Below are positions 4,412-32,810 of a stretch of DNA of 38,616 nucleotides, one piece after another. Source of the stretch: Armatimonadota bacterium. Lineage in GTDB: Bacteria; Armatimonadota; UBA5829; DTLH01. The notes beneath the pieces were generated by a model. That model was not told the DNA's origin and searched no databases. It saw nothing but the letters and a program-made list of their open reading frames with translations. The translations under genes were made by a program, and so were the position numbers. The stretch's first letter is position 1, and each line of letters opens with the position of its first letter. Location of the stretch: assembly GCA_038207085.1 (NCBI GenBank), contig JBBRAE010000026.1, positions 1 to 38,616 on the forward strand. Reading direction: 5' to 3'.

Positions 4412-4521
4412 GTGAGAAGATAATTCTCTTTTTCTCCTTCCTAAAATGTGTTGTGAATTAACCGAAGGGACGCAAGTCCTGGAGGACCCGCAGAACTTCT
4501 AGTCCTGCGGGATATTTTTTT
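4412..4521 (+). ncRNA. Candidate sigma54-dependent small RNA (about 110 nt)
   Basis: Bounded by the sigma54 promoter and an intrinsic terminator. Contains a CU-rich tract and a GGGAC-GCAA-GTCCT hairpin; no RBS-supported ORF. Confidence 0.55.
4487..4521 (+). terminator. Intrinsic terminator
   Basis: CCCGCAG...CTGCGGG followed by ATATTTTTTT. Confidence 0.75.
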
Positions 4522-4578
4522 GTTGGGTGGCGATTTCCGAATCCCGAATGGCGTAATGCATGGCAATTGATCCACTAG
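4520..4578 (+). repeat. Dispersed palindromic repeat family B, internally deleted copy
   Basis: TTGTTGGGTGGCGATTTCCGAATCCCGAATGGCGTAATGCATGGCAATTGATCCACTAG matches the reverse complement of 29259-29350, lacking the segment between two CCGAATC motifs. Confidence 0.85.
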
Positions 4579-4655
4579 CCCGCATTATTCACGAGTAGCG
4601 TGAATAATGCTCTGTTAGCGAAAGCTTTATTCGCTTCACGAATAAAGCGGGCTAG
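4575..4655. mobile_element. 73-bp double-hairpin miniature element, copy A, CTAG-flanked
   Basis: CTAG (4575-4578) + 73 bp + CTAG (4652-4655); 72/73 identical to 29875-29947. Confidence 0.9.
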
Positions 4656-23068: not shown

Positions 23069-25522
23069 ATGATCATGCAGACACTGGACGGAGCCTGGCG
23101 AGTTTCTCAGGCGGGTAGCGACGACTCTTTCCCGGCCAAGACGCCGGGTTGTATCCATCTCGACCTTTTAAACGCGAAAGAGATCGGTGATCCGTTCTAC
23201 GGCGACAACGAGTACAGAATTGCTTGGATTGCCCGCACTGACTGGGTCTACACACGGACGTTTGTCCCGGATGCGTCGCTTCTTGGGGCTGAGAAGATCG
23301 TTCTTGAGTGCGACGGGCTCGACACGCTCTGCACCCTTGAGCTTAACGGTGAGGTGATCGGCTGCACCGATAACATGTATATAGCCCACAGATTTGACGT
23401 TAGCGGCAAGCTTGCGGCGGGAGAAAACGAGCTTCGGATCACCTTCAAGTCGGCGGTCAACTACGGCGAGGCACTGATGTGCAAGGATGTGGTCTGTCCT
23501 GGTGATTCGATTCCGGGCTCGGTCTTCGTGAGGAAAGCTCCCTCCCAGTACGGCTGGGACTGGGGTCCCAAGATTCCGACCAGCGGCATTTGGCGTCCAA
23601 TCAGGCTCGCGGGCTACAGCGTCTCCCGAATCGACGACCTGCGAGTCGAGCAGACCCATGAGGCGGGCCGGGTCACGTTGAACGTCACAGCCGAGCTTGA
23701 GAATTACAGTTCTGAAGTCTGTAGCCTTTCAGTCAGGGTGATCGACCCCGACGGGACTTCTCGTGAGTGCCCGGCAAACGTCTCCAGTTCGATTGGCGAA
23801 TGCGAAGTCACGATCGACTCCCCCAAACTCTGGTGGCCGAACGGTTACGGCGATCAGCCGCTTTACCAGGTAGAAGCAACCCTTTCCTACGATGGCAAAA
23901 CGCTCGATGTCGCAAAGAGGCAGATCGGCCTGCGCACAATCGAGCTCGATCAGACGCCGGACCAGTGGGGCAAACGCTTCGCCTTCGTCGTAAACGGCGT
24001 CCCCGTGTTCTGCAAAGGCGCGGACTGGATCCCTGCAGACCAGTTCCCAAGCCGCCTCACAGAAGAGCATTACCGCCATCTCATAAAAAGCTCCGTGATG
24101 GCTAATATGAACATGCTGCGGATCTGGGGTGGCGGGTTCTATGAGGACGAAGTCTTTTACGACCTCTGCGACGAGTACGGCATCCTCGTCTGGCAGGACT
24201 TTATGTTCGCCTGCGGGCACTACCCGGTCGACGCGCCGTTCCTGGCAAACGTCGCACGCGAAACCGAAGCGGTCGTGAGGCGTCTGCGAAATCGCGCGTG
24301 TATGGCGCTTTGGTGCGGCAACAACGAGATGGAGTGGGGAGTCGGCAGCTGGTGGGGAGGCGAGGGCAGCGACAAGCGCAAGGCCGATTATCCCAAGATA
24401 TTCCACGAGACCATCCCAAGTGTCGTTGAGAGAGTCGACCCGCACATCGCCTACTGGCCGAGCTCGCCCTCAAGTGGCATCGAAAATTACTGCAAGCTCG
24501 AGCCCAACGATCAGAACTTCGGCGACGGCCACTACTGGGACGTGTGGCACGGTAGAAAACCCTTTACAGCCTACCGCGAACAGTTCCACCGGTTCATGAG
24601 CGAGTTCGGCTTTGAGTCGATGCCCGCGATCGAGACCGTGCGCACATTCGCCGGGGAAGAAGATCTGAACATGACAAGCTACGTCATGGAGTGCCATCAG
24701 AAAAACGGCGGCGGCAATGGCCTGATACTTTACTACATGGCGCAGACCTTCAGGTTCCCCAAAGACTTTGAGATGATGTGCTACACAAGCCAGCTTCTCC
24801 AGGCCGAGGCGATGCGCTATGGCGTCGAGCACTGGAGGCGAAACCGCAACGACCTGCGCTGCATGGGGGCGCTCTACTGGCAGCTAAACGACTGCTGGCC
24901 GGTCTCAAGCTGGGCGAGCATCGACTACTTCGGCCGCTGGAAGGCGACGCAGTATTTTGCACGACGATTCAACGAGTCGCTGCACCTATCCGTCTGCGAA
25001 GAGGGCAAGACAGCCAAGGTCCACGTGACAAACGATCTGCTCGCGCCCGTAGAGGTAGAGATCAAGTGGAGCCTTGAGAAACTCGACGGCACAGTGCTTT
25101 CATCAGGCGCACAGACTCTGACAGTCGCAGCCGAACTAGACACGCTCGCAGCCGATCTGGATTTCACGAGCGAACTCTCAGGTGACGCGGTGCGCGAAAC
25201 GGTGCTCGTCTGCGAGATGACCGCCGGAGGCAAGCCCGCGGGTTCGTCGGTGACGACGTTTGTCCCGTCCAAGCACGTAGCCCTTCCTGAGGTCAATATC
25301 GCTCTTGAAACTGGGACGGACGCAGAAGGCCAGTTCATCCGGGTCACAACCGACAAGACGGCGCGCTACGTGTGTCTTGCGATTCCAGGCCGTGACGTGA
25401 TCTTTTCAGACAACTACTTCGACCTCGCAGCGGGTCGGACAAACACCGTGCGACTGCTCTCGGAAGTCGAGCCGGAGGTACTGGCAACCGCCAAAGTCTA
25501 CTCGCTTCGCGATTCTTATTAG
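23069..25522 (+). CDS. Glycoside hydrolase family 2, beta-mannosidase-like
   Basis: GLDT, RKAPSQYGWDWGP, WWPNGYG.QPLY, KGADWIP, NMLRIWGGG.YE, WCGNNE, RFMSEFG, YWQLNDCWP. Confidence 0.94.
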   Translation: MIMQTLDGAWRVSQAGSDDSFPAKTPGCIHLDLLNAKEIGDPFYGDNEYRIAWIARTDWVYTRTFVPDASLLGAEKIVLECDGLDTLCTLELNGEVIGCTDNMYIAHRFDVSGKLAAGENELRITFKSAVNYGEALMCKDVVCPGDSIPGSVFVRKAPSQYGWDWGPKIPTSGIWRPIRLAGYSVSRIDDLRVEQTHEAGRVTLNVTAELENYSSEVCSLSVRVIDPDGTSRECPANVSSSIGECEVTIDSPKLWWPNGYGDQPLYQVEATLSYDGKTLDVAKRQIGLRTIELDQTPDQWGKRFAFVVNGVPVFCKGADWIPADQFPSRLTEEHYRHLIKSSVMANMNMLRIWGGGFYEDEVFYDLCDEYGILVWQDFMFACGHYPVDAPFLANVARETEAVVRRLRNRACMALWCGNNEMEWGVGSWWGGEGSDKRKADYPKIFHETIPSVVERVDPHIAYWPSSPSSGIENYCKLEPNDQNFGDGHYWDVWHGRKPFTAYREQFHRFMSEFGFESMPAIETVRTFAGEEDLNMTSYVMECHQKNGGGNGLILYYMAQTFRFPKDFEMMCYTSQLLQAEAMRYGVEHWRRNRNDLRCMGALYWQLNDCWPVSSWASIDYFGRWKATQYFARRFNESLHLSVCEEGKTAKVHVTNDLLAPVEVEIKWSLEKLDGTVLSSGAQTLTVAAELDTLAADLDFTSELSGDAVRETVLVCEMTAGGKPAGSSVTTFVPSKHVALPEVNIALETGTDAEGQFIRVTTDKTARYVCLAIPGRDVIFSDNYFDLAAGRTNTVRLLSEVEPEVLATAKVYSLRDSY

Positions 25523-25539
25523 TAATATAGAGCTATTTC

Positions 25540-25571
25540 GTAGGGGCGGACCAGTGTGTCCGCCCTTTTTT
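25540..25571 (+). repeat. GTAG-type REP hairpin, copy 2 (followed by T6, may act as terminator)
   Basis: GTAGGGGCGGACCAGTGTGTCCGCCC + TTTTTT, just after the GH2 stop. Confidence 0.9.
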
Positions 25572-25610
25572 CAGTTTCCTTCGCTCATGTGAACGGGTAT
25601 TATTCACAAG

Positions 25611-25691
25611 CTAACCTGCATTATTCACGCTACTCGTGAATAATGCTCCGTTAGCGAGAGCTTTATTCGTAAAGCGAATAAAGCGGGCTAA
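25611..25691. mobile_element. 73-bp double-hairpin miniature element, copy B, CTAA-flanked
   Basis: CTAA (25611-25614) + 73 bp + CTAA (25688-25691); same stems as copies A/C, loops inverted. Confidence 0.88.
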
Positions 25692-25720
25692 TAGACAGTT
25701 ACCCGTAGACGGAGGATATC

Positions 25721-28201
25721 ATGGCCGATCATCCCGGACTTTCACCCGCAGATCTCACTCACCGGTGCGATCCGGAGCAGTTCCCGTTCCAAAGCACCGA
25801 GGAAGTGCCACCTCTTGACGGCACCATCGGGCAGGAGCGCGCCGTAAGTGCTATCGAGTTTGGGCTGGGGATCCAGACCGAGGGGTTTAACCTGTATGTC
25901 GCGGGCCGCCCCGGAACCGGCAAGAACTCGAGCGTGCGCCAGTTTGTCGACGGACGCGCGGTAAACGAGCCCATTCCCCAGGACTGGGTCTACGTCTTCA
26001 ACTTCGACAACCCACTTTCACCAAGAGCGATCAAACTCTCTTCCGGCCACGCGCAGCAGTTCGCCGCGGATATGGACGAAGTCGTAACTGCTGCGAAGAC
26101 CGAGCTGCCAAGAGAGTTTGAGTCGGAAAGCTACGAAAAACGACGCGCCGAGACGATGCAGAACATCCAGCAACGCCGCGACGCGATATTCACCCAGTTG
26201 CAGGGTCAGGCGGCAGAGCTTGGTTTCTCGATAGAGATGACCCCGATCGGCATCGTCACAGTCCCGATGTCCGATGGCAAACCCCTCGCCCGCGAGGACT
26301 TCGAGAAGCTCCCAGATGAAGAACGAGAGCACATCAAAGAGCGCAGCAACCGCTTGGAACAGGCCGTCAACCAGACCGCCTCAAGGATCCGTCAGCTCGA
26401 AAAAGAGGCCGCAGAACGGATGAAATCGCTCGACAGCGAGGTCGCCATGTTCACCGTCGGCCACCTGCTCGAAGACTTGAGGCGCAAATATAAGGCATGT
26501 GAGCCTGAGTCCGAGTGCACGGAGATACTCGCCTACCTTGACAATGTGCAGCGCGATATCGTCGAGCATATCGAGGAGTTCAGGCAGACCGAAAAGCAGC
26601 AGCCGATGCCTGCCGCGGTCCAGGGGATGGTCACCGAGGCCACCGAAGCGATATTTGACCGCTACAAGGTGAACGTCTTTGTGAGCAACGACGACGTTCA
26701 GGGCGCGCCGGTTATCATCGAGAACAACCCCAACTACTATAACCTGTTTGGCAAGGTGGAATATCGTGCGAAGTTCGGGTTTATGACGACCGACCACAAC
26801 CTGATCCGCGCCGGGGCGATCCAGCGGGCAAACGGCGGCTACCTGATCATCCAGGCGCTCGACCTGCTCCTGAACCCCTTCTCTTGGGAAGGCCTGAAGC
26901 GCACGCTTCGGGGCGGCGAAGTGCGCATCGAGAACATCGGAGAGCAGTACGGCATCATCCCGACCGCAACGCCAAAGCCTGAGCCCATCCCCATTGATCT
27001 CAAGGTCATCCTGATCGGAAGCCCTGAGATATACTACCTGCTCTATCAGAGGGACGAGGACTTCCGAAAGCTCTTCAAAGTCAAAGCCGACTTCGATATA
27101 GAGATGAACCGCGACGAGCGACACGTGGACCAGTATGTGCGCTTTATCAGCAAAGAGGTGCGCGAAAAGGGCTTGAAGCATTTCGACCGAAGCGCCGTGG
27201 CCCGGATGGTCGAGTTTGGCGGGCGGCTGATCGAGGACAAGGCCCGCATCTCGGCCAAGTTCATCGAGATTTCAGACCTAGTAAGCGAAGCGAGCTACTG
27301 GGCGGGAGCCAATGGCAACGGGCATGTCACCTCGGCAGACGTTGAGCAGGCGCTTTCTCAAAAAGAATATCGCTCGCGGATGATAGAGGACAAGATTCAT
27401 CGACTTATCGAAGAAGGCGTGATCCTGATCGACACCAAGGGAGCCGTCTCAGGGCAGGCAAACGGTCTTTCCATATATTCGATAGGCGACTACACCTTTG
27501 GGCGGCCCTCAAAGATCACCTGCCGCACCTCAATAGGACGCGGCGGGATAATCGACATCCAGCGGGAAACCGAGATGGGCGGGCCTATCCACAGCAAGGG
27601 TGTGATGATCCTCCACGGCTACTTGACCGGCAAATACGCCCAGGACAAGCCGCTTGTCCTATCGGCGACGATCGCCTTTGAGCAGCTTTATGAAGGGGTC
27701 GAAGGCGACTCGGCCTCAAGCACTGAGCTCTACACGCTTTTATCCAGCCTGTCGTCCCTTCCCATGCGTCAGGATATCGCTGTTACGGGGTCGGTCAACC
27801 AGTTCGGGGAGATTCAGCCGATCGGCGGGGTCAACCGCAAGATCGAGGGGTTCTTTGAGGTCTGCAAGTCCAGGGGGCTCACGGGGCGGCAGGGGGTGAT
27901 GATCCCCATCCAAAACGTGCGCCACCTGATGCTAAAAGACGAAGTGATCCGGGCGGTCGATGCGGGGCTCTTCAATGTGTGGGCGGTCGAGACGATCGAC
28001 CAGGGTATCGAAATCCTGACCGGTGTCCCGGCAGGCAAGCAATTAGACGACGGCAAATACCCCGAGGGCACGGTGCATTATCTGGTCGACAATCGCCTGC
28101 GGGAGATGGCCGACAAAGTGCACGATTTCGGCACGCCCGATGGCTACACCGCAAAACCCCGAAGAGAAAAGATCTCGATGGAGGGGCTTGGGGGGCAGTA
28201 A
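25721..28201 (+). CDS. Lon-like ATP-dependent protease (LonC/AAA_32 + Lon_C type)
   Basis: IGQERA, GRPGTGKN, ANGGYL, GPIHSKG, EGDSASSTE (catalytic Ser), TGSVNQFG.IQPIGGVNRKIEGFF (catalytic Lys); GGAGG RBS. Confidence 0.93.
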   Translation: MADHPGLSPADLTHRCDPEQFPFQSTEEVPPLDGTIGQERAVSAIEFGLGIQTEGFNLYVAGRPGTGKNSSVRQFVDGRAVNEPIPQDWVYVFNFDNPLSPRAIKLSSGHAQQFAADMDEVVTAAKTELPREFESESYEKRRAETMQNIQQRRDAIFTQLQGQAAELGFSIEMTPIGIVTVPMSDGKPLAREDFEKLPDEEREHIKERSNRLEQAVNQTASRIRQLEKEAAERMKSLDSEVAMFTVGHLLEDLRRKYKACEPESECTEILAYLDNVQRDIVEHIEEFRQTEKQQPMPAAVQGMVTEATEAIFDRYKVNVFVSNDDVQGAPVIIENNPNYYNLFGKVEYRAKFGFMTTDHNLIRAGAIQRANGGYLIIQALDLLLNPFSWEGLKRTLRGGEVRIENIGEQYGIIPTATPKPEPIPIDLKVILIGSPEIYYLLYQRDEDFRKLFKVKADFDIEMNRDERHVDQYVRFISKEVREKGLKHFDRSAVARMVEFGGRLIEDKARISAKFIEISDLVSEASYWAGANGNGHVTSADVEQALSQKEYRSRMIEDKIHRLIEEGVILIDTKGAVSGQANGLSIYSIGDYTFGRPSKITCRTSIGRGGIIDIQRETEMGGPIHSKGVMILHGYLTGKYAQDKPLVLSATIAFEQLYEGVEGDSASSTELYTLLSSLSSLPMRQDIAVTGSVNQFGEIQPIGGVNRKIEGFFEVCKSRGLTGRQGVMIPIQNVRHLMLKDEVIRAVDAGLFNVWAVETIDQGIEILTGVPAGKQLDDGKYPEGTVHYLVDNRLREMADKVHDFGTPDGYTAKPRREKISMEGLGGQ

Positions 28202-28234
28202 AAGAAAATGGCCCCGGAAGGTTCCGGGGCCAAA
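28200..28234. terminator. Terminator between the convergent protease and WYL genes
   Basis: GGCCCCGGAA-GG-TTCCGGGGCC with a T-rich tail on the minus strand. Confidence 0.75.
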
Positions 28235-28239
28235 TCTAT

Positions 28240-29238
28240 TCACACCTCAAAGTCAGATAGAGCGGAGTCGCCTGCTTTTCGTCCGTTATAGGACTCAAGC
28301 ATAGCTTTTGCCGTCTCCTGAATCTGGGTCCGCAGCTCAGCAGGCTCAAGCACCTCGGCTTCGGCGCCGAAACTGAGCACCCAAAAGCCGATCTCTTCAA
28401 GCCCCGCGACTGTTACGGAGAACAATACACCGCCGTCGGGCAAGTCTTCAAGCCGCTGGGTTGGATGACGCTTGGTTTCGCGTATCAACTGTGCGACTTT
28501 TGGTGAGAACTTCACCCGAACATTTTGCTCCTGATCTCCGACCCACAGCTCCCAACTCTTGGCATAAAAGTTGTCGATCGAAAAGTCATGGGGCAGTTGG
28601 AACGTCTCACCGGTCTGGTGAGCGGCCACCACTCGCATAAACTTGAGCTGTATCGTCCTGTTGTGAGACTTGGAATGCGCGATCACATACCAGTTGTGCC
28701 TTCTGAAAACGAATGCATACGGGTCGATGATCAGGTTCTTTGTCTCACCGCTGTGAAGCGACCGATAGGTGATGTTCACCCTGCGGTTTCGCTCGACCGC
28801 GTCCGCGAGGCATTTTGATACCTCCGGCTCCAGGTCGTCACCTGTAAAGTTCGGCGCGCTGATCGCGTGTTTCTTGAGCGACGCCTGCACAGACTCAACC
28901 GTGTCAGACATCAGCGCGTTTTCGATCTTCTGCCAGGCGCCAAGCGAATGCTCCACGAATGGCCCTTGTTTTTGCATAGCCCCGGCAGTAAGCGCAAGCC
29001 TTACGGCGAGCACTTCCTTGGGTGACAGATCAAGGCGACTGCCGATGGGACGTTCAGCGAGGTAGTAACCTCCATGATCACAATACACCGGGATGTGTAG
29101 CTCAGCAGAAAGCGACTCAAGGTATCTGTAGACAGTTCTCTGGGATCGGCCAAGGCAATCCGCAAGCTGTGCAATACTCAAGCCCGGTCGCTCCCGCAGC
29201 ACATCCATCATCTGCAGAAGCAGTATAGACTTAACCAT
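28240..29238 (-). CDS. HTH-WYL-WCX transcriptional regulator (PafB/YafY-like)
   Basis: N-terminal HTH (LADCLGRSQRTVYRYLESL), I.Y.S...IDPY....NWYV, WCX (WVLSFGAEAEVLEPAELR); GGAGGAG RBS. Confidence 0.93.
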   Translation of the reverse strand: MVKSILLLQMMDVLRERPGLSIAQLADCLGRSQRTVYRYLESLSAELHIPVYCDHGGYYLAERPIGSRLDLSPKEVLAVRLALTAGAMQKQGPFVEHSLGAWQKIENALMSDTVESVQASLKKHAISAPNFTGDDLEPEVSKCLADAVERNRRVNITYRSLHSGETKNLIIDPYAFVFRRHNWYVIAHSKSHNRTIQLKFMRVVAAHQTGETFQLPHDFSIDNFYAKSWELWVGDQEQNVRVKFSPKVAQLIRETKRHPTQRLEDLPDGGVLFSVTVAGLEEIGFWVLSFGAEAEVLEPAELRTQIQETAKAMLESYNGRKAGDSALSDFEV

Positions 29239-29258
29239 TTACTCCTCCGAATTTACTC

Positions 29259-29350
29259 CTAGTGGGTCGATTGCCATGCATTACGCCATTTGGGATTCGG
29301 GAATCCCGTCTTAGCTTGGGGGTGGCGATTCGGAAATCTCCACCCAACAA
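29259..29350 (-). repeat. Dispersed palindromic repeat family B, longer copy
   Basis: Two hairpins (GGGTGG.GATTTCCGAATC.CCACCC and GGGATTCCCGAATCCC) plus a tail shared with 4520-4578. Confidence 0.85.
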
Positions 29351-29799
29351 CGGCTGATTTCATGCCAAGTGACCCACCAGTGCCGGATAAACTTGATTCT
29401 TGTGCATTGGCAACTGCTGCTACGAAGCATCGCACGCGGCAGATACCAATGGGCAAACCACATTATTCAAGTTAAGCGTGCACTAATTGGTAATTCGGAG
29501 TAGCCCGTTCGGATTCCTCCCTGCTTTTCCGATTATTCGACAAATTTTCATCAGGGGAGTGCCGCATGTGGAGAGAAATGGTACCGGAGGCTGATAGCTT
29601 GGCCCCTACTGACATGTTCTGACATCCAAGTTGTTGACGATATGGTGAACAGGGTGCACATTAGCGGAAATTACTGTCGCTTCTAAGGGACACATTTATG
29701 ATTCCAATTAGTGAGGGTATTACTTCTGGCCGCAACAAATAAATAAACCCCTGCGCTGCCGGAGGACATCGCATGGGCTCGCCCATGGAATGCGCCGGG

Positions 29800-30402
29800 C
29801 TAGACTTCAAAATGGCTTGCACCCCAAATACGTCTGGTTCCAATGAGTCCAATCAGCCCTGCCGAGATGGCTAGTCCGCATTATTCACGAGTAGCGTGAA
29901 TAATGCTCTGTTAGCGAAAGCTTTATTCGCTTCACGAATAAAGCGGGCTAGCAGGCTGCCAGGTTCCGGGACATTGGGTGTGTTTGGTGGAGTGGTGGTG
30001 GTCGCGTGGTCGAACCAGGTCTGACAGAGTCGACGTGAACTTGAATGTCACGCTGCCACCGGGCGCAATCGCTGGTGGAGTGTAGTATTTGCTGTTGGCG
30101 CTGCCGATTCCGAACGTGCTCCAGTGCCCATCGCTCCACGACCAGCCCTGAGGCATTGTAAGAATCTGTTCGGGGGTCGGCAGGTTGAACGGCTGAAGCG
30201 TCCATACGAGGACATCATAGCCTGTGGTATTGTCGCCCACAGTTCCCGAGGTGTTTGTGAGCACAATCGTGTAGTCGTTTCCGACTCTCGAAAATATAGC
30301 CGACGTAATTCCGCTTGTCAGCCCGGATTGCCATGACTGCCCGAAAGCTGATCCAGCCAGAAGAGAAAACAGCAGGAAAATTATCGTCGTTGTTCGTTTC
30401 AT
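29800..30402 (-). pseudogene. PEP-CTERM sorting-domain protein, disrupted
   Basis: Signal peptide MKRTTTIIFLLFSLLAGSAFG; frameshift near 30023; VPEPGSLLA is split from ISAGLIGLIGTRR by a 77-bp insertion at CTAG. Confidence 0.88.
29871..29951. mobile_element. 73-bp double-hairpin miniature element, copy C, CTAG-flanked, inside the PEP-CTERM gene
   Basis: Removing the element plus one CTAG restores an in-frame PEP-CTERM signal. Confidence 0.93.
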
Positions 30403-30610
30403 TAATTGCTCCGTTCGTTTTCCGGCGGATAGCCGCAGTATAGTGTAAGTAAGTTTGATCCCACTGTCATTGCGGCAAGTATCGTCTCTGAAACCCATCA
30501 AGTTGCACAAATATAGTAATTTTGCTTAAGAAAATCAGGTATAACAGCCAGTCCTAATGTCGGTCTTTCTCGTGCAACCGATCAGCTTTCGGTGCTATAA
30601 TCATGCTTTG

Positions 30611-30651
30611 CTAGCGAGAGCTTTATTCGCTTCACGAATAAAGCGGGCTAG
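30611..30651. mobile_element. 33-bp single-hairpin unit of the miniature element, copy D, CTAG-flanked
   Basis: CTAG-CGAGAGCTTTATTCGCTTCACGAATAAAGCGGG-CTAG equals the right half of copies A-C. Confidence 0.82.
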
Positions 30652-30680
30652 TGCCGGATGAACTTGAATCTGACGTTTGA

Positions 30681-30750
30681 CATCGAAGCCTCTGCACGCT
30701 TCTGTGACGTTGCGAGATATCGGCCAAATCCAGATCAAGCGTGCACTCGC
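30681..30750 (+). repeat. Dispersed repeat family C, copy 2
   Basis: CATCGAAGCCTCTGCACGC-N39-GCGTGCACTCGC. Confidence 0.8.
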
Positions 30751-30779
30751 CGCACTTGCCCAGTTAGAAAGGACCTACC

Positions 30780-32810
30780 TTGAGCAGGATAGACCCTTGG
30801 AACCTAAGACAGATTCACCTCGACTTTCACACGCCGGGGTTTGTGCCGGTCGCTGACCAGTTCAGCGCCAAAGCATTTTTCGACACCTTGGAAGCCGCGC
30901 GCGTCAACTCGATCAGCTTTTTCGCGAAGTGCCACCACGGCTATTCCTATTTCAAAAGCGAGATCGGGACCCCTCACCCGGGGATGACGACGCGCGACCT
31001 CTTCGGAGAGGCCGCAGCTGAGGCCCAGCAGCGGGGAATGGGTTTCCTCGCCTACTTCAGCTTAAACGTCGACGAAGTGGTCGCCGAGGCGCACCCGGAG
31101 TGGGTCGCCCAGTTCAAAGACGGCACGCCGGTCGACAGCCAGGTGCTGCAGGACGGCTCGGAGCTCTACTGGAGATGGCTTTGTCCGAACAAGGGCGGGT
31201 ACCTCGACGAGTTCTTCTTTCCCCACGTTGAAGAATGCCTGAAGAATTATCCGATGGACGGCATATTCATCGATATGGCGGGGTACCTCCCAGGCAGCTG
31301 CTTTTGCGAGGCATGCGTCTCGGCGATGCGCGCGGAGGGCCTTGACCCCGACAACTCGATCGACCACAACAAGTTTAACTCAGCCAACATGCAGGCCTTC
31401 GCCGGGAGGCTCCGAGAGGTCATGGACCGCCACAGGTCGGGGATGCGCCTTGAGATCGGCTGCTTCAACGCCTGGGGCGAAGCGAGGAAAGCCCTGGGGA
31501 CGATCTCCGAGTTCTACGTCGAGTCGCTTTCTTACCAGACGGGCTGGTTCAACTTTCCTGTGATGGGCCGCTACGTCTCCAACACGGGTGTCCCTGTGAC
31601 GGGTATGACGGGCAGGTTCCTCAAGAATTGGGGCGACTTTGGGACGGTGCTTTCCGCGCATCAGATGAAGCTTCAGGTCGGCCAGCATCTCTCCATCGGC
31701 GCAAGCTGCACCGTGGGCGACCACCTGCACCCCTCAGGTAGGCTTGAAAAGGCCGTGTACGACGTAGTCGGCCAGGCGTTCTCTCATGTGGAGCGGCTTC
31801 AGCCTTACTGTTCGGGTATGGAGCGCTCGCGCGAGGTTGCGATATTGATCCCCGAGGGGATAGAGTCAAACACCGCCGTCGGAACCGAAAAAGTCGGGGC
31901 GATCGACGTCTGGGACTGTGTCTACGGCGCGGGCAAGCTCTTTATGGAGGAACACCTGCAGTGGGACGTGCTAGACCCCAGCATGTCGCTCCACGGCCTC
32001 ACCGCCGCAGTCTTGATTCATCCCTATTTGACGACCGAATATATAGATAAGCTTGAGGTGTTTGTAACCGGTGGCGGCACGCTCATCGTCGACGCAAACG
32101 GCATCCTCGCGCCCGAGTCCATCGCGCAGAGATGGAACGAGTTTATCGGCGTGACCTCCGCGAAGATCAGCGAGCACCCCGGCTCGTTCTACCGAACGCT
32201 CGACCCAGCGATTGGGGCGGGGCTTCCCGATATGGCGAACTACGTGCACGCGCCGGGCGTCGAGATCGAATCCGCCGAGGGTTCCGAAGTCCTCGCAAGG
32301 GTAATAAACTCCCCCTGTGTGCGCTCCCGCGAGCACTTCTACGGCCACTTCCACGGGGCCGATATGGTAGAGGCGGGTCCTGCGATAACCTCAGTCACCC
32401 GAGGGGCGGGCAAGGTAATCGTGCTCTCGCAGGCGATCTTCGCCGCATACCTAAACACCGGCTACCACGCCCACCGGACGCTTCTTTCGAACATCCTAAG
32501 CGCCGCCATCCCTGACACGCTCATCAAGACCGACGCGCCGACGATTATGGAGATCACCGCAGGCAAAAAGGGTGGCCGCACCGTCCTGCAGTTCCTGAGC
32601 TTCATAGCCGACCGCCGCCACCGCTACTCGTTCGAGTCGATCAACGAGCCGATCCCGCAGAGCATAACGGTAGAGCTTCGCACCGACAAGCCCATAACGC
32701 GTCTGTTCGAGCCGATCTCGGGGCAGAAGATCACCTTCAGCGAGACGGCGACCGGTATCAAGTTTACTACCCCGCCGGTTGTGGGACATTTGATGATTCT
32801 TGTGGAATGA
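30780..32810 (+). CDS. GH151/GHL6-like glycoside hydrolase (putative alpha-L-fucosidase) with trimerisation-type domain
   Basis: RQIHLDFHT, FAKCHHGYSYF, DGIFID, VESL, GMTGRF..NWGDFG, VGDHLHPSG; TTG start after AAAGGA. Confidence 0.8.
   Translation: MSRIDPWNLRQIHLDFHTPGFVPVADQFSAKAFFDTLEAARVNSISFFAKCHHGYSYFKSEIGTPHPGMTTRDLFGEAAAEAQQRGMGFLAYFSLNVDEVVAEAHPEWVAQFKDGTPVDSQVLQDGSELYWRWLCPNKGGYLDEFFFPHVEECLKNYPMDGIFIDMAGYLPGSCFCEACVSAMRAEGLDPDNSIDHNKFNSANMQAFAGRLREVMDRHRSGMRLEIGCFNAWGEARKALGTISEFYVESLSYQTGWFNFPVMGRYVSNTGVPVTGMTGRFLKNWGDFGTVLSAHQMKLQVGQHLSIGASCTVGDHLHPSGRLEKAVYDVVGQAFSHVERLQPYCSGMERSREVAILIPEGIESNTAVGTEKVGAIDVWDCVYGAGKLFMEEHLQWDVLDPSMSLHGLTAAVLIHPYLTTEYIDKLEVFVTGGGTLIVDANGILAPESIAQRWNEFIGVTSAKISEHPGSFYRTLDPAIGAGLPDMANYVHAPGVEIESAEGSEVLARVINSPCVRSREHFYGHFHGADMVEAGPAITSVTRGAGKVIVLSQAIFAAYLNTGYHAHRTLLSNILSAAIPDTLIKTDAPTIMEITAGKKGGRTVLQFLSFIADRRHRYSFESINEPIPQSITVELRTDKPITRLFEPISGQKITFSETATGIKFTTPPVVGHLMILVE

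Follow-up and report, generated by a model that had tools for sequence, protein, structure and literature searches.

Which transposition system could produce an insertion that bears a duplicated target of the DDE type and, at the same time, strong hairpins of the HUH type? This question is raised by a 73-bp sequence that occurs repeatedly in a 38,616-nucleotide stretch of an Armatimonadota genome (contig JBBRAE010000026.1 of assembly GCA_038207085.1; this whole stretch, our contig C26, is referred to below as the window), and that in one place interrupts the sorting signal of a PEP-CTERM protein gene. The assembly, labelled G000 here, comprises 3.35 Mb in 83 contigs and has 57% G+C. Comparison of sequences leads us to propose that the element is very probably a miniature inverted-repeat transposable element (MITE) of 73 bp, without a gene of its own and derived from an insertion sequence (IS) of the IS1380 family, which has a DDE transposase and is related to piggyBac. 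Naming this likely mobiliser family removes the apparent paradox of DDE-type duplication combined with HUH-type hairpins.

The window contains three full-length copies, all on the forward strand, and the double-hairpin sequence lies at each of them between identical tetranucleotides, as the initial annotation had described. Repeat comparison places copy A at 4579-4651 (4575..4655 with its CTAG/CTAG duplication), copy B at 25615-25687 (25611..25691 with CTAA/CTAA) and copy C, delimited also by its fold, at 29875..29947, between a left CTAG at 29871..29874 and a right CTAG at 29948..29951. A fourth copy on the same strand, truncated at its 5' side, is recognisable from 30599, has its right end at 30647 and is followed by CTAG (30599..30651); grouping of the repeats within the window resolves it into a remnant of hairpin 1, a central CTAG and a complete hairpin 2. 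A single one of the 73 bases distinguishes copy A from copy C. Copy B shows 80% identity over an 82-nt repeat, and its differences lie mainly in the hairpin loops, since the five-base loops of both hairpins are reverse-complemented relative to A and C, with the stems unchanged.

Folded as single-stranded DNA, the element forms two hairpins with stems of 12 bp and 10 bp, at -23.2 kcal/mol (z -6.2 against shuffled sequences); in copy C these are hairpin 1 at 29878-29906 and hairpin 2 at 29920-29944, with the centre TTAG. In each hairpin, the terminal repeat is separated by five bases from an inverted copy of its own inner part, repeat and copy standing back-to-back. The element holds four repeat-like sites of alternating orientation, around a centre which reads TTAG or CTAG, and no open reading frame (ORF) is possible within its 73 bp. 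It had been credited with almost no terminal inverted repeat (CCCGC/GCGGG), a view that has to be corrected, as the repeat is 12-15 bp long, CCCGC[A/T]TTATTC..., rather than 5 bp. The left end CCCGCATTATTC agrees with the reverse complement of the right end CCCGCTTTATTC at 11/12 positions; in the longer form, comparing the left end CCCGCATTATTCACG with the reverse-complemented right end CCCGCTTTATTCGTG, 11 of the first 12 positions agree. The profiles of both ends are almost invariant over the 128 copies of 73-bp length.

The nature of the flanking tetranucleotides was addressed by a tabulation over the whole genome, as the initial annotation had proposed. A profile built from 114 full-length BLAST matches was run with nhmmer over the whole assembly; its 252 hits fall into 182 loci, 135 of them full-length and 47 partial. 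Of the full-length copies, 112 of 135 have the same 4-mer on both sides (CTAA 63, CTAG 31, CTAT 7, TTAG 6, ATAG 3 and CTAC 2), and the 23 non-identical pairs are mostly one base apart. Random re-pairing of the flanks, repeated 10,000 times, gave on average 48.3 identical pairs and at most 72, so that none reached the observed number. Three 'master' sequences occur 13, 12 and 8 times, the members of each being identical in sequence. The 12-fold 73-mer has matched flanks at every site (8 CTAA/CTAA, 3 CTAG/CTAG and 1 CTAT/CTAT), the 13-fold sequence has 9 matched and 4 unmatched pairs, and the 8-fold sequence 7 and 1, respectively. No target motif was found outside the four bases in the flanks of the genome copies.

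If the tetranucleotide is a duplicated target, sites without the element should carry it once. Since G000 alone represents the window's genus among the genomes compared, orthologous sites were examined in two species of a sister genus, for four full-length copies of G005 and their counterparts in G003. Three of these four G005 copies are absent from G003, where the flanks abut with a single 4-mer. At the first site CTAA...CTAA stands against one CTAA, with a length difference of 77 bp; at the second, TTAG...TTAG against one TTAG (about 75 bp); at the third, CTAG...TTAG against one TTAG (78 bp). The remaining copy is common to both species (91% identity). Thus, identical elements stand between different matched pairs and empty sites retain one 4-mer, which confirms that the 4-mer follows the target and not the element. 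Matched flanks together with empty orthologous sites identify the element as a MITE with a 4-bp CTAR target duplication, and its multiple copies, duplicated target and orthologous presence or absence agree with the earlier description of it as mobile and non-autonomous. At copy C itself, no empty allele was found: among metagenome contigs that cover 25000-31000 and come from the probable source sample, none joins 29874 to 29952, and, as these contigs break at repeats, they are uninformative on this allele. A search of metagenome contigs for exact occurrences of 31 bases from the right flank of copy C was likewise negative (0 matches).

These findings bear directly on the possibility that the element is of the REP/REPIN type and is moved in single-stranded form by a RAYT (HUH Y1) enzyme, which would recognise the hairpins and use CTAN as a conserved cleavage tetranucleotide. 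Such a reading would accommodate the two strong hairpins and the constant CTA core of the flanking 4-mer, and the genome does have two Y1 transposase genes, both of them RAYTs (NF047646, 102 and 100 bits). Y1 transposition makes no staggered-cut duplication, as established for IS200/IS605. On the other hand, among elements of identical sequence the variable first and fourth bases of the left 4-mer are matched by those of the right one, and one 4-mer is kept at the empty orthologous sites, both of which indicate a staggered-cut duplication. The direct-repeat covariation largely refutes the RAYT explanation. The surroundings of the RAYT genes, where copies of the element had been suggested as worth looking for, also speak against it: the first gene (C5:70970-71554, minus strand) lies between two 135-nt direct repeats bearing GTAGTGGCCGGTCGC...GCGACCGGCCACTAC arms, and the second (C23:43309-43863, plus strand) between TCGTGCGCGATATTCATCGCGCACGA hairpins, together with a 37-nt direct repeat of the upstream gene end. 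All these repeats are unrelated to the 73-bp element. The initial annotation had seen a mixture of DDE and HUH/REP signatures; with each hairpin made of a terminal repeat and its own inverted copy, and with RAYTs accompanied by repeats of other kinds, this view does not hold, and mobilisation by a RAYT appears extremely unlikely.

A better candidate for the mobilising enzyme is indicated by the ends. A gene on contig C75 encodes an IS1380-family transposase (PF13701, 174.8 and 51.4 bits), and the DNA directly upstream of it reads CTAG followed by CCCGAATAATTCGTAAT. A complete relative, locus L058, is 1669 bp long and runs from CTAG and CCCGGATTATTCATGAAG through a 466-aa ORF (NF033539, 357 bits with a cut-off of 180; PF13701, 447 bits) to CGTGAATAATCCGGG and CTAG. 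Scanning of metagenomes with an alignment of two such transposases gave 80 loci, or 81 with L058. Both ends of this type are present in 41 of the 81 (L058 and 40 metagenomic loci), 1420-1758 bp apart, and these loci read CTAG followed by CCCGSATTATTC... at both ends, around ORFs matching NF033539 / PF13701; CTAG/CTAG flanks are found in 30 of the 41. The 4-mer preceding the ends found by the motif was CTAG in 98 cases, TTAG in 7 and CTAA in 6. The MITE ends match those of the IS1380-family elements at up to 15/15 bases, the hairpin-1 end CCCGCATTATTCACG being identical to the right ends in L048 and L181. The loci whose transposases are closest to that of C75 (L146, L148 and L151; 82-84% protein identity) have a left repeat CCCGAATAATTCG..., like C75, and a right repeat CCCGCTTTATTCATGA, to be compared with the hairpin-2 end of the MITE, CCCGCTTTATTCGTGA. 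Protein identity of this clade to the named plasmid-borne elements IS1380A and ISPa33 is only about 40%, and in the named IS1380A copy the windows searched contained no end-repeat pair of at least 12/14 and no occurrence of the end motif.

With ends and target in common, and with one copy resident in the genome, the IS1380 family is by far the best candidate mobiliser. The initial annotation had named none and leaned to IS5; the match to a CTAG-inserting IS1380-family clade, with a defective copy in the genome, points elsewhere. We infer that the IS1380-family transposase moves the MITE. Acting in trans, it would recognise the 12-15-bp terminal repeats, CCCGCATTATTCACG on one side and CCCGCTTTATTCG on the other, and insertion into a tetranucleotide of the CTAG/CTAA type would duplicate its 4 bp.

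Two other sources were weighed against this proposal. IS5-group elements duplicate YTAR, and a 4-bp duplication of the CTAR type would suit a MITE of the IS5 family. However, PF01609 detects only two loci in the genome, namely the IS1380-family copy on C75 and an IS4/IS701-like element whose ORF has 468 aa and whose ends read CAGGAGCATCGTTTTTAG (C48:15058-16747, at a contig end and beside a PEP-CTERM gene end), PF13359 has no match, and the element's ends agree at up to 15 of 15 bases with those of another family, as described above. No IS5-family transposase gene with CCCGC[A/T]TTATTC ends was found in the genomes and loci examined, and an IS5 origin seems highly improbable. The second potential source is a multi-copy element with 21-bp ends, CCCCAATACGGTTCATATTAG, which always follows CTAG or TTAG and often stands directly beside a MITE copy. 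It occurs at eight contig ends (on C42, C79, C12, C45 and C67, and, with its other end, on C13, C27 and C29). The shared flank type and the adjacency would favour it as the mobiliser; against this, its ends agree with those of the MITE in the first three bases only, and its interior is not assembled, which leaves its enzyme unread. An 18-base scan of public genome contigs with its end gave 6 matches, in unrelated phyla and at about chance level. We consider this source quite improbable.

Several observations weigh against derivation of the MITE from the IS1380 family and its mobilisation by such a transposase. The C75 copy has a frameshift around residue 93-95 and breaks off at residue 269, where the contig ends, so that the right end of this IS is not seen; a tblastn search with pieces from G033 did not find the C-terminal half of the transposase in the assembly. 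PF13701 has no match in any of the five relatives that bear copies (G005, G003, G008, G006 and G039), and the only PF01609 matches of these five have unrelated ends. For G008, the figures are 108 matches to hairpin 1 and 20 contigs. Close homologues of the C75 transposase were detected in 3 of 40 relatives. It is common for metagenome-assembled genomes (MAGs) to contain orphan MITEs, and equally for their ISs to be left unassembled. The full-length ISs are flanked almost always by the palindrome CTAG, in which a duplication is indistinguishable from a longer inverted repeat, so that the proof of a direct repeat comes from the MITE only. In addition, when copies are read from hairpin 1 to hairpin 2, CTAN (CTAA/CTAT/CTAC) flanks outnumber NTAG (TTAG/ATAG/GTAG) ones 72 to 9, and a symmetric target model does not predict such an orientation bias. 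Orientation of neighbouring genes was considered as its source and rejected, stop-codon use being alike on both sides (27 left vs 31 right of 135); motifs in the flanks of the 135 full copies likewise give no explanation.

Copy C illustrates the effect of insertion on a gene. On the minus strand, the reading frame ...NVPEPGSLLA runs into the element; removal of 77 bp restores an in-frame tail, ISAGLIGLIGTRRIWGASHFEV, and a stop codon. This distal tail of the PEP-CTERM signal occupies 29800..29874 (minus strand, with its stop codon at 29800-29802). The element separates it from the PEP motif and sits in the CTA-GCC (Leu-Ala) codons of the sorting signal. With a PEP-CTERM profile built from 13 tails of this genome, the virtual empty site scores 28-29 bits (positions 2-25), as compared with 12-13 bits (positions 2-13) for the DNA as it stands; the PEP motif, hydrophobic segment and basic cluster are complete only after virtual removal of the 77 bp. 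Orthologues of the same family end ...VPEPGSLLALTSGLLGVVGI...RRRK, and the restored tail aligns with theirs without a gap. The reconstruction put forward in the initial annotation is thus supported, although its statement that the element was caught inserting goes too far: the gene also has a frame-shifting deletion, and no empty allele of the site was found. In this second lesion (29999-30402, minus strand) residues 162-209 of the orthologues, about 48 codons, have no counterpart and the frame passes from -2 to -3, independently of the MITE insertion. The body of the gene, in which the signal peptide and domain share one frame, lies within 29948..30402 (minus strand), and the linker with VPEPGSLLA (about 29948-30020, minus strand) is in another frame following the internal deletion. 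The gene is therefore a pseudogene with two lesions. Orthologous PEP-CTERM genes, which might have been expected to carry a single CTAG here, come from other genera (47-55% protein identity) and have CTC GCT, CTC GCA or ATT GCC in place of CTA GCC, and codons that differ at this distance make them uninformative on the point.

A relation to gene ends is apparent elsewhere in the genome. The TAA or TAG within the target allows the element to insert at a stop codon and to restore it, and in 51 of the 135 full-length copies one duplicated 4-mer is the stop codon of a frame of at least 80 codons (27 on the left, 31 on the right, 7 on both sides). Two copies, at C2:75509-75669 and C8:125271-125476, lie directly downstream of intact PEP-CTERM gene ends, where the stop codon is part of CTAA and is regenerated by an insertion there. 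Stop-codon association and the strong fold (z -6.2) could be expected of a structured RNA or terminator family that is kept by selection and spreads without transposition. Against such a family stand the modest size of the stop-codon enrichment relative to a background of 10-15% per strand, presence or absence of the element together with a 4-bp duplication, the location of one copy within a coding sequence, and loops found in either orientation. Rfam, moreover, gave no match at gathering score in the window, and on the element itself only chance-level rows with E up to 1. Of the explanations weighed here, this is the least probable.

How the 73-bp form arose is suggested by the shorter loci. 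Among the 47 partial ones there are single-hairpin units of 35 bp, in which two complete repeats enclose 5 nt; examples at C8:37033 and C7:65449 read CCCGC...GCGGG between matched CTAA flanks, and several further partial loci are hairpin-2 units with CTAG on either side. Two tandem pairs have one 4-mer in common, which is to be expected if the regenerated target beside a copy is hit again. These arrangements suggest that two adjacent minimal units gave rise to the 73-bp form. The idea of two units sharing a target is weakened, and with it this part of our proposal, by related elements in G008, G039 and G006, which share hairpin 1, differ in their second hairpin and lack a YTAG centre. The inversion of loops noted in copy B is found in at least 11 (hairpin 1) and at least 19 (hairpin 2) of the 135 copies. 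Template switching between inverted-repeat arms is reported to homogenise the arms and invert the spacers (PMC8604942). Template switching between the hairpin arms probably underlies the loop inversions here, and it would account for both the perfect stems and the loop flips.

The distribution of the element is patchy and burst-like, as in other MITEs. An 81-base query found matches in 9 of 40 relatives. Of 201 genomes sampled from the phylum, 5, which belong to a single class, contain hairpin 1 with no more than one mismatch, with 134 matches in G000, 108 in G008, 76 in G039, 3 in G006 and 1 in G003; the reversed control pattern gave 0 matches. In named public genomes, exact matches to hairpin 1 come from Armatimonadetes MAGs and from one contig labelled Anaerolineales. 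Three double-hairpin elements of G006 (L111-L113) are flanked by TTAA/TTAA, TTTA/TTTA and TTCA/TTCA, i.e. by a 4-bp duplication of the same size with a different target preference.

In G000, CTAG is strongly depleted (2304 sites, observed/expected 0.18), and so are CTAA/TTAG, with a ratio of 0.36. A visible share of the CTAG sites is located at or within MITE copies; GATC is enriched in the same genome (observed/expected 1.75). A second repeat family, of about 90-125 bases and ending ...GGCAATTGACCCACTAG, is present in the window at 4520-4578 and, inverted, at 29259-29350, and has 46 BLAST matches in the genome. Copy A sits at the CTAG that closes the first of these repeats, and MITE copies on C58 and C2 are also found at its terminal CTAG. 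This family, too, is probably a small mobile element, with CTAG as its end or its target.

Seamless excision is a hallmark of piggyBac. Excision footprints in the form of doubled 4-mers were sought in G000, and no clear excess was found, either for CTAGCTAG (2 vs 1.6 expected) or for CTAACTAA and TTAGTTAG together (12 vs 6.9 expected). A more far-reaching view would regard the Armatimonadota elements and their parent ISs as a bacterial, tetranucleotide-specific counterpart of piggyBac (CTAG/CTAA, with TTNA in one relative), in which two 15-bp repeats 5 bases apart, i.e. the 35-bp unit, would suffice for transposition; the paired-repeat design would be a requirement of a multimeric transposase and not a side effect of arm homogenisation, seamless excision would be possible, and the 72-to-9 bias would stem from an asymmetric synaptic complex. 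Taken jointly, these propositions are doubtful, and we offer them tentatively.

Assignment of the element to the IS1380 family has consequences beyond the locus. With it, the IS1380 elements gain a very small MITE family, and a widespread environmental clade comes into view that inserts almost only at CTAG, a sequence so rare in G000. Besides landing on stop codons, the element breaks genes, as exemplified by the PEP-CTERM tail at copy C. For annotation of Armatimonadota MAGs, its copies account for many contig breaks and for small 'structured' repeats. Through its link to piggyBac, the clade might serve as a simple bacterial model in which to study DDE transposition directed to a tetranucleotide.

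Among known systems, the IS1380 family itself provides the closest comparison. The complete relatives are about 1.65 kb in length, encode a single DDE transposase and have short inverted repeats starting with CC and a 4-bp flank. For IS1247 of this family, Table 2 of PMC3281130 lists a length of 1672 bp, inverted repeats of 16/13 and a direct repeat of 5 bp, and the complete relatives fit these measures of size and repeats. ISPme1 and ISEcp1 are reported to accept repeat-like sequences as alternative ends (PMC9330008), which fits a transposase acting on degenerate or inner repeats. The element differs from these ISs in being gene-less and 73 bp long, and the clade whose ends it matches differs from IS1380A and ISPa33 in inserting almost only at CTAG, besides the low protein identity given above.

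With piggyBac the element shares a four-base target that is duplicated at insertion and ends that start with CCC. According to PMC10813416, the ends of piggyBac start CCC..., its target is TTAA (4 bp), for which CTAA/TTAG occur as variants, and IS1380 was used as its outgroup. Here, the target is CTAG/CTAA, the host is bacterial and doubled 4-mers are not in clear excess. IS5-group elements resemble ours in their 4-bp YTAR-type duplication and differ in their ends, which in our case match the IS1380 family. REP, BIME and REPIN sequences are likewise small palindromic units, often paired and of high copy number, and RAYT genes are present in this genome; REPs are not known to make a target duplication and cluster around their own RAYT, whereas at the 73-bp element 4 bp are genuinely duplicated as a direct repeat and the RAYTs are accompanied by other repeats.

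The likeness to bacterial MITEs is general: the element is non-coding, has terminal repeats and a target duplication, and is high-copy, patchy and polymorphic in its insertions. Bacterial MITEs such as Correia/NEMIS, RUP and ERIC are about 100-160 bp long. The element described here is smaller (73 bp, with single units of about 35 bp) and appears to be IS1380-derived. In the excerpts available from the literature on IS1380 in connection with MITEs, no IS1380-derived MITE is described, and those on miniature inverted-repeat elements of Armatimonadetes describe no such element. The element is thus of an ordinary kind, but it represents a new and unusually small family of MITEs.

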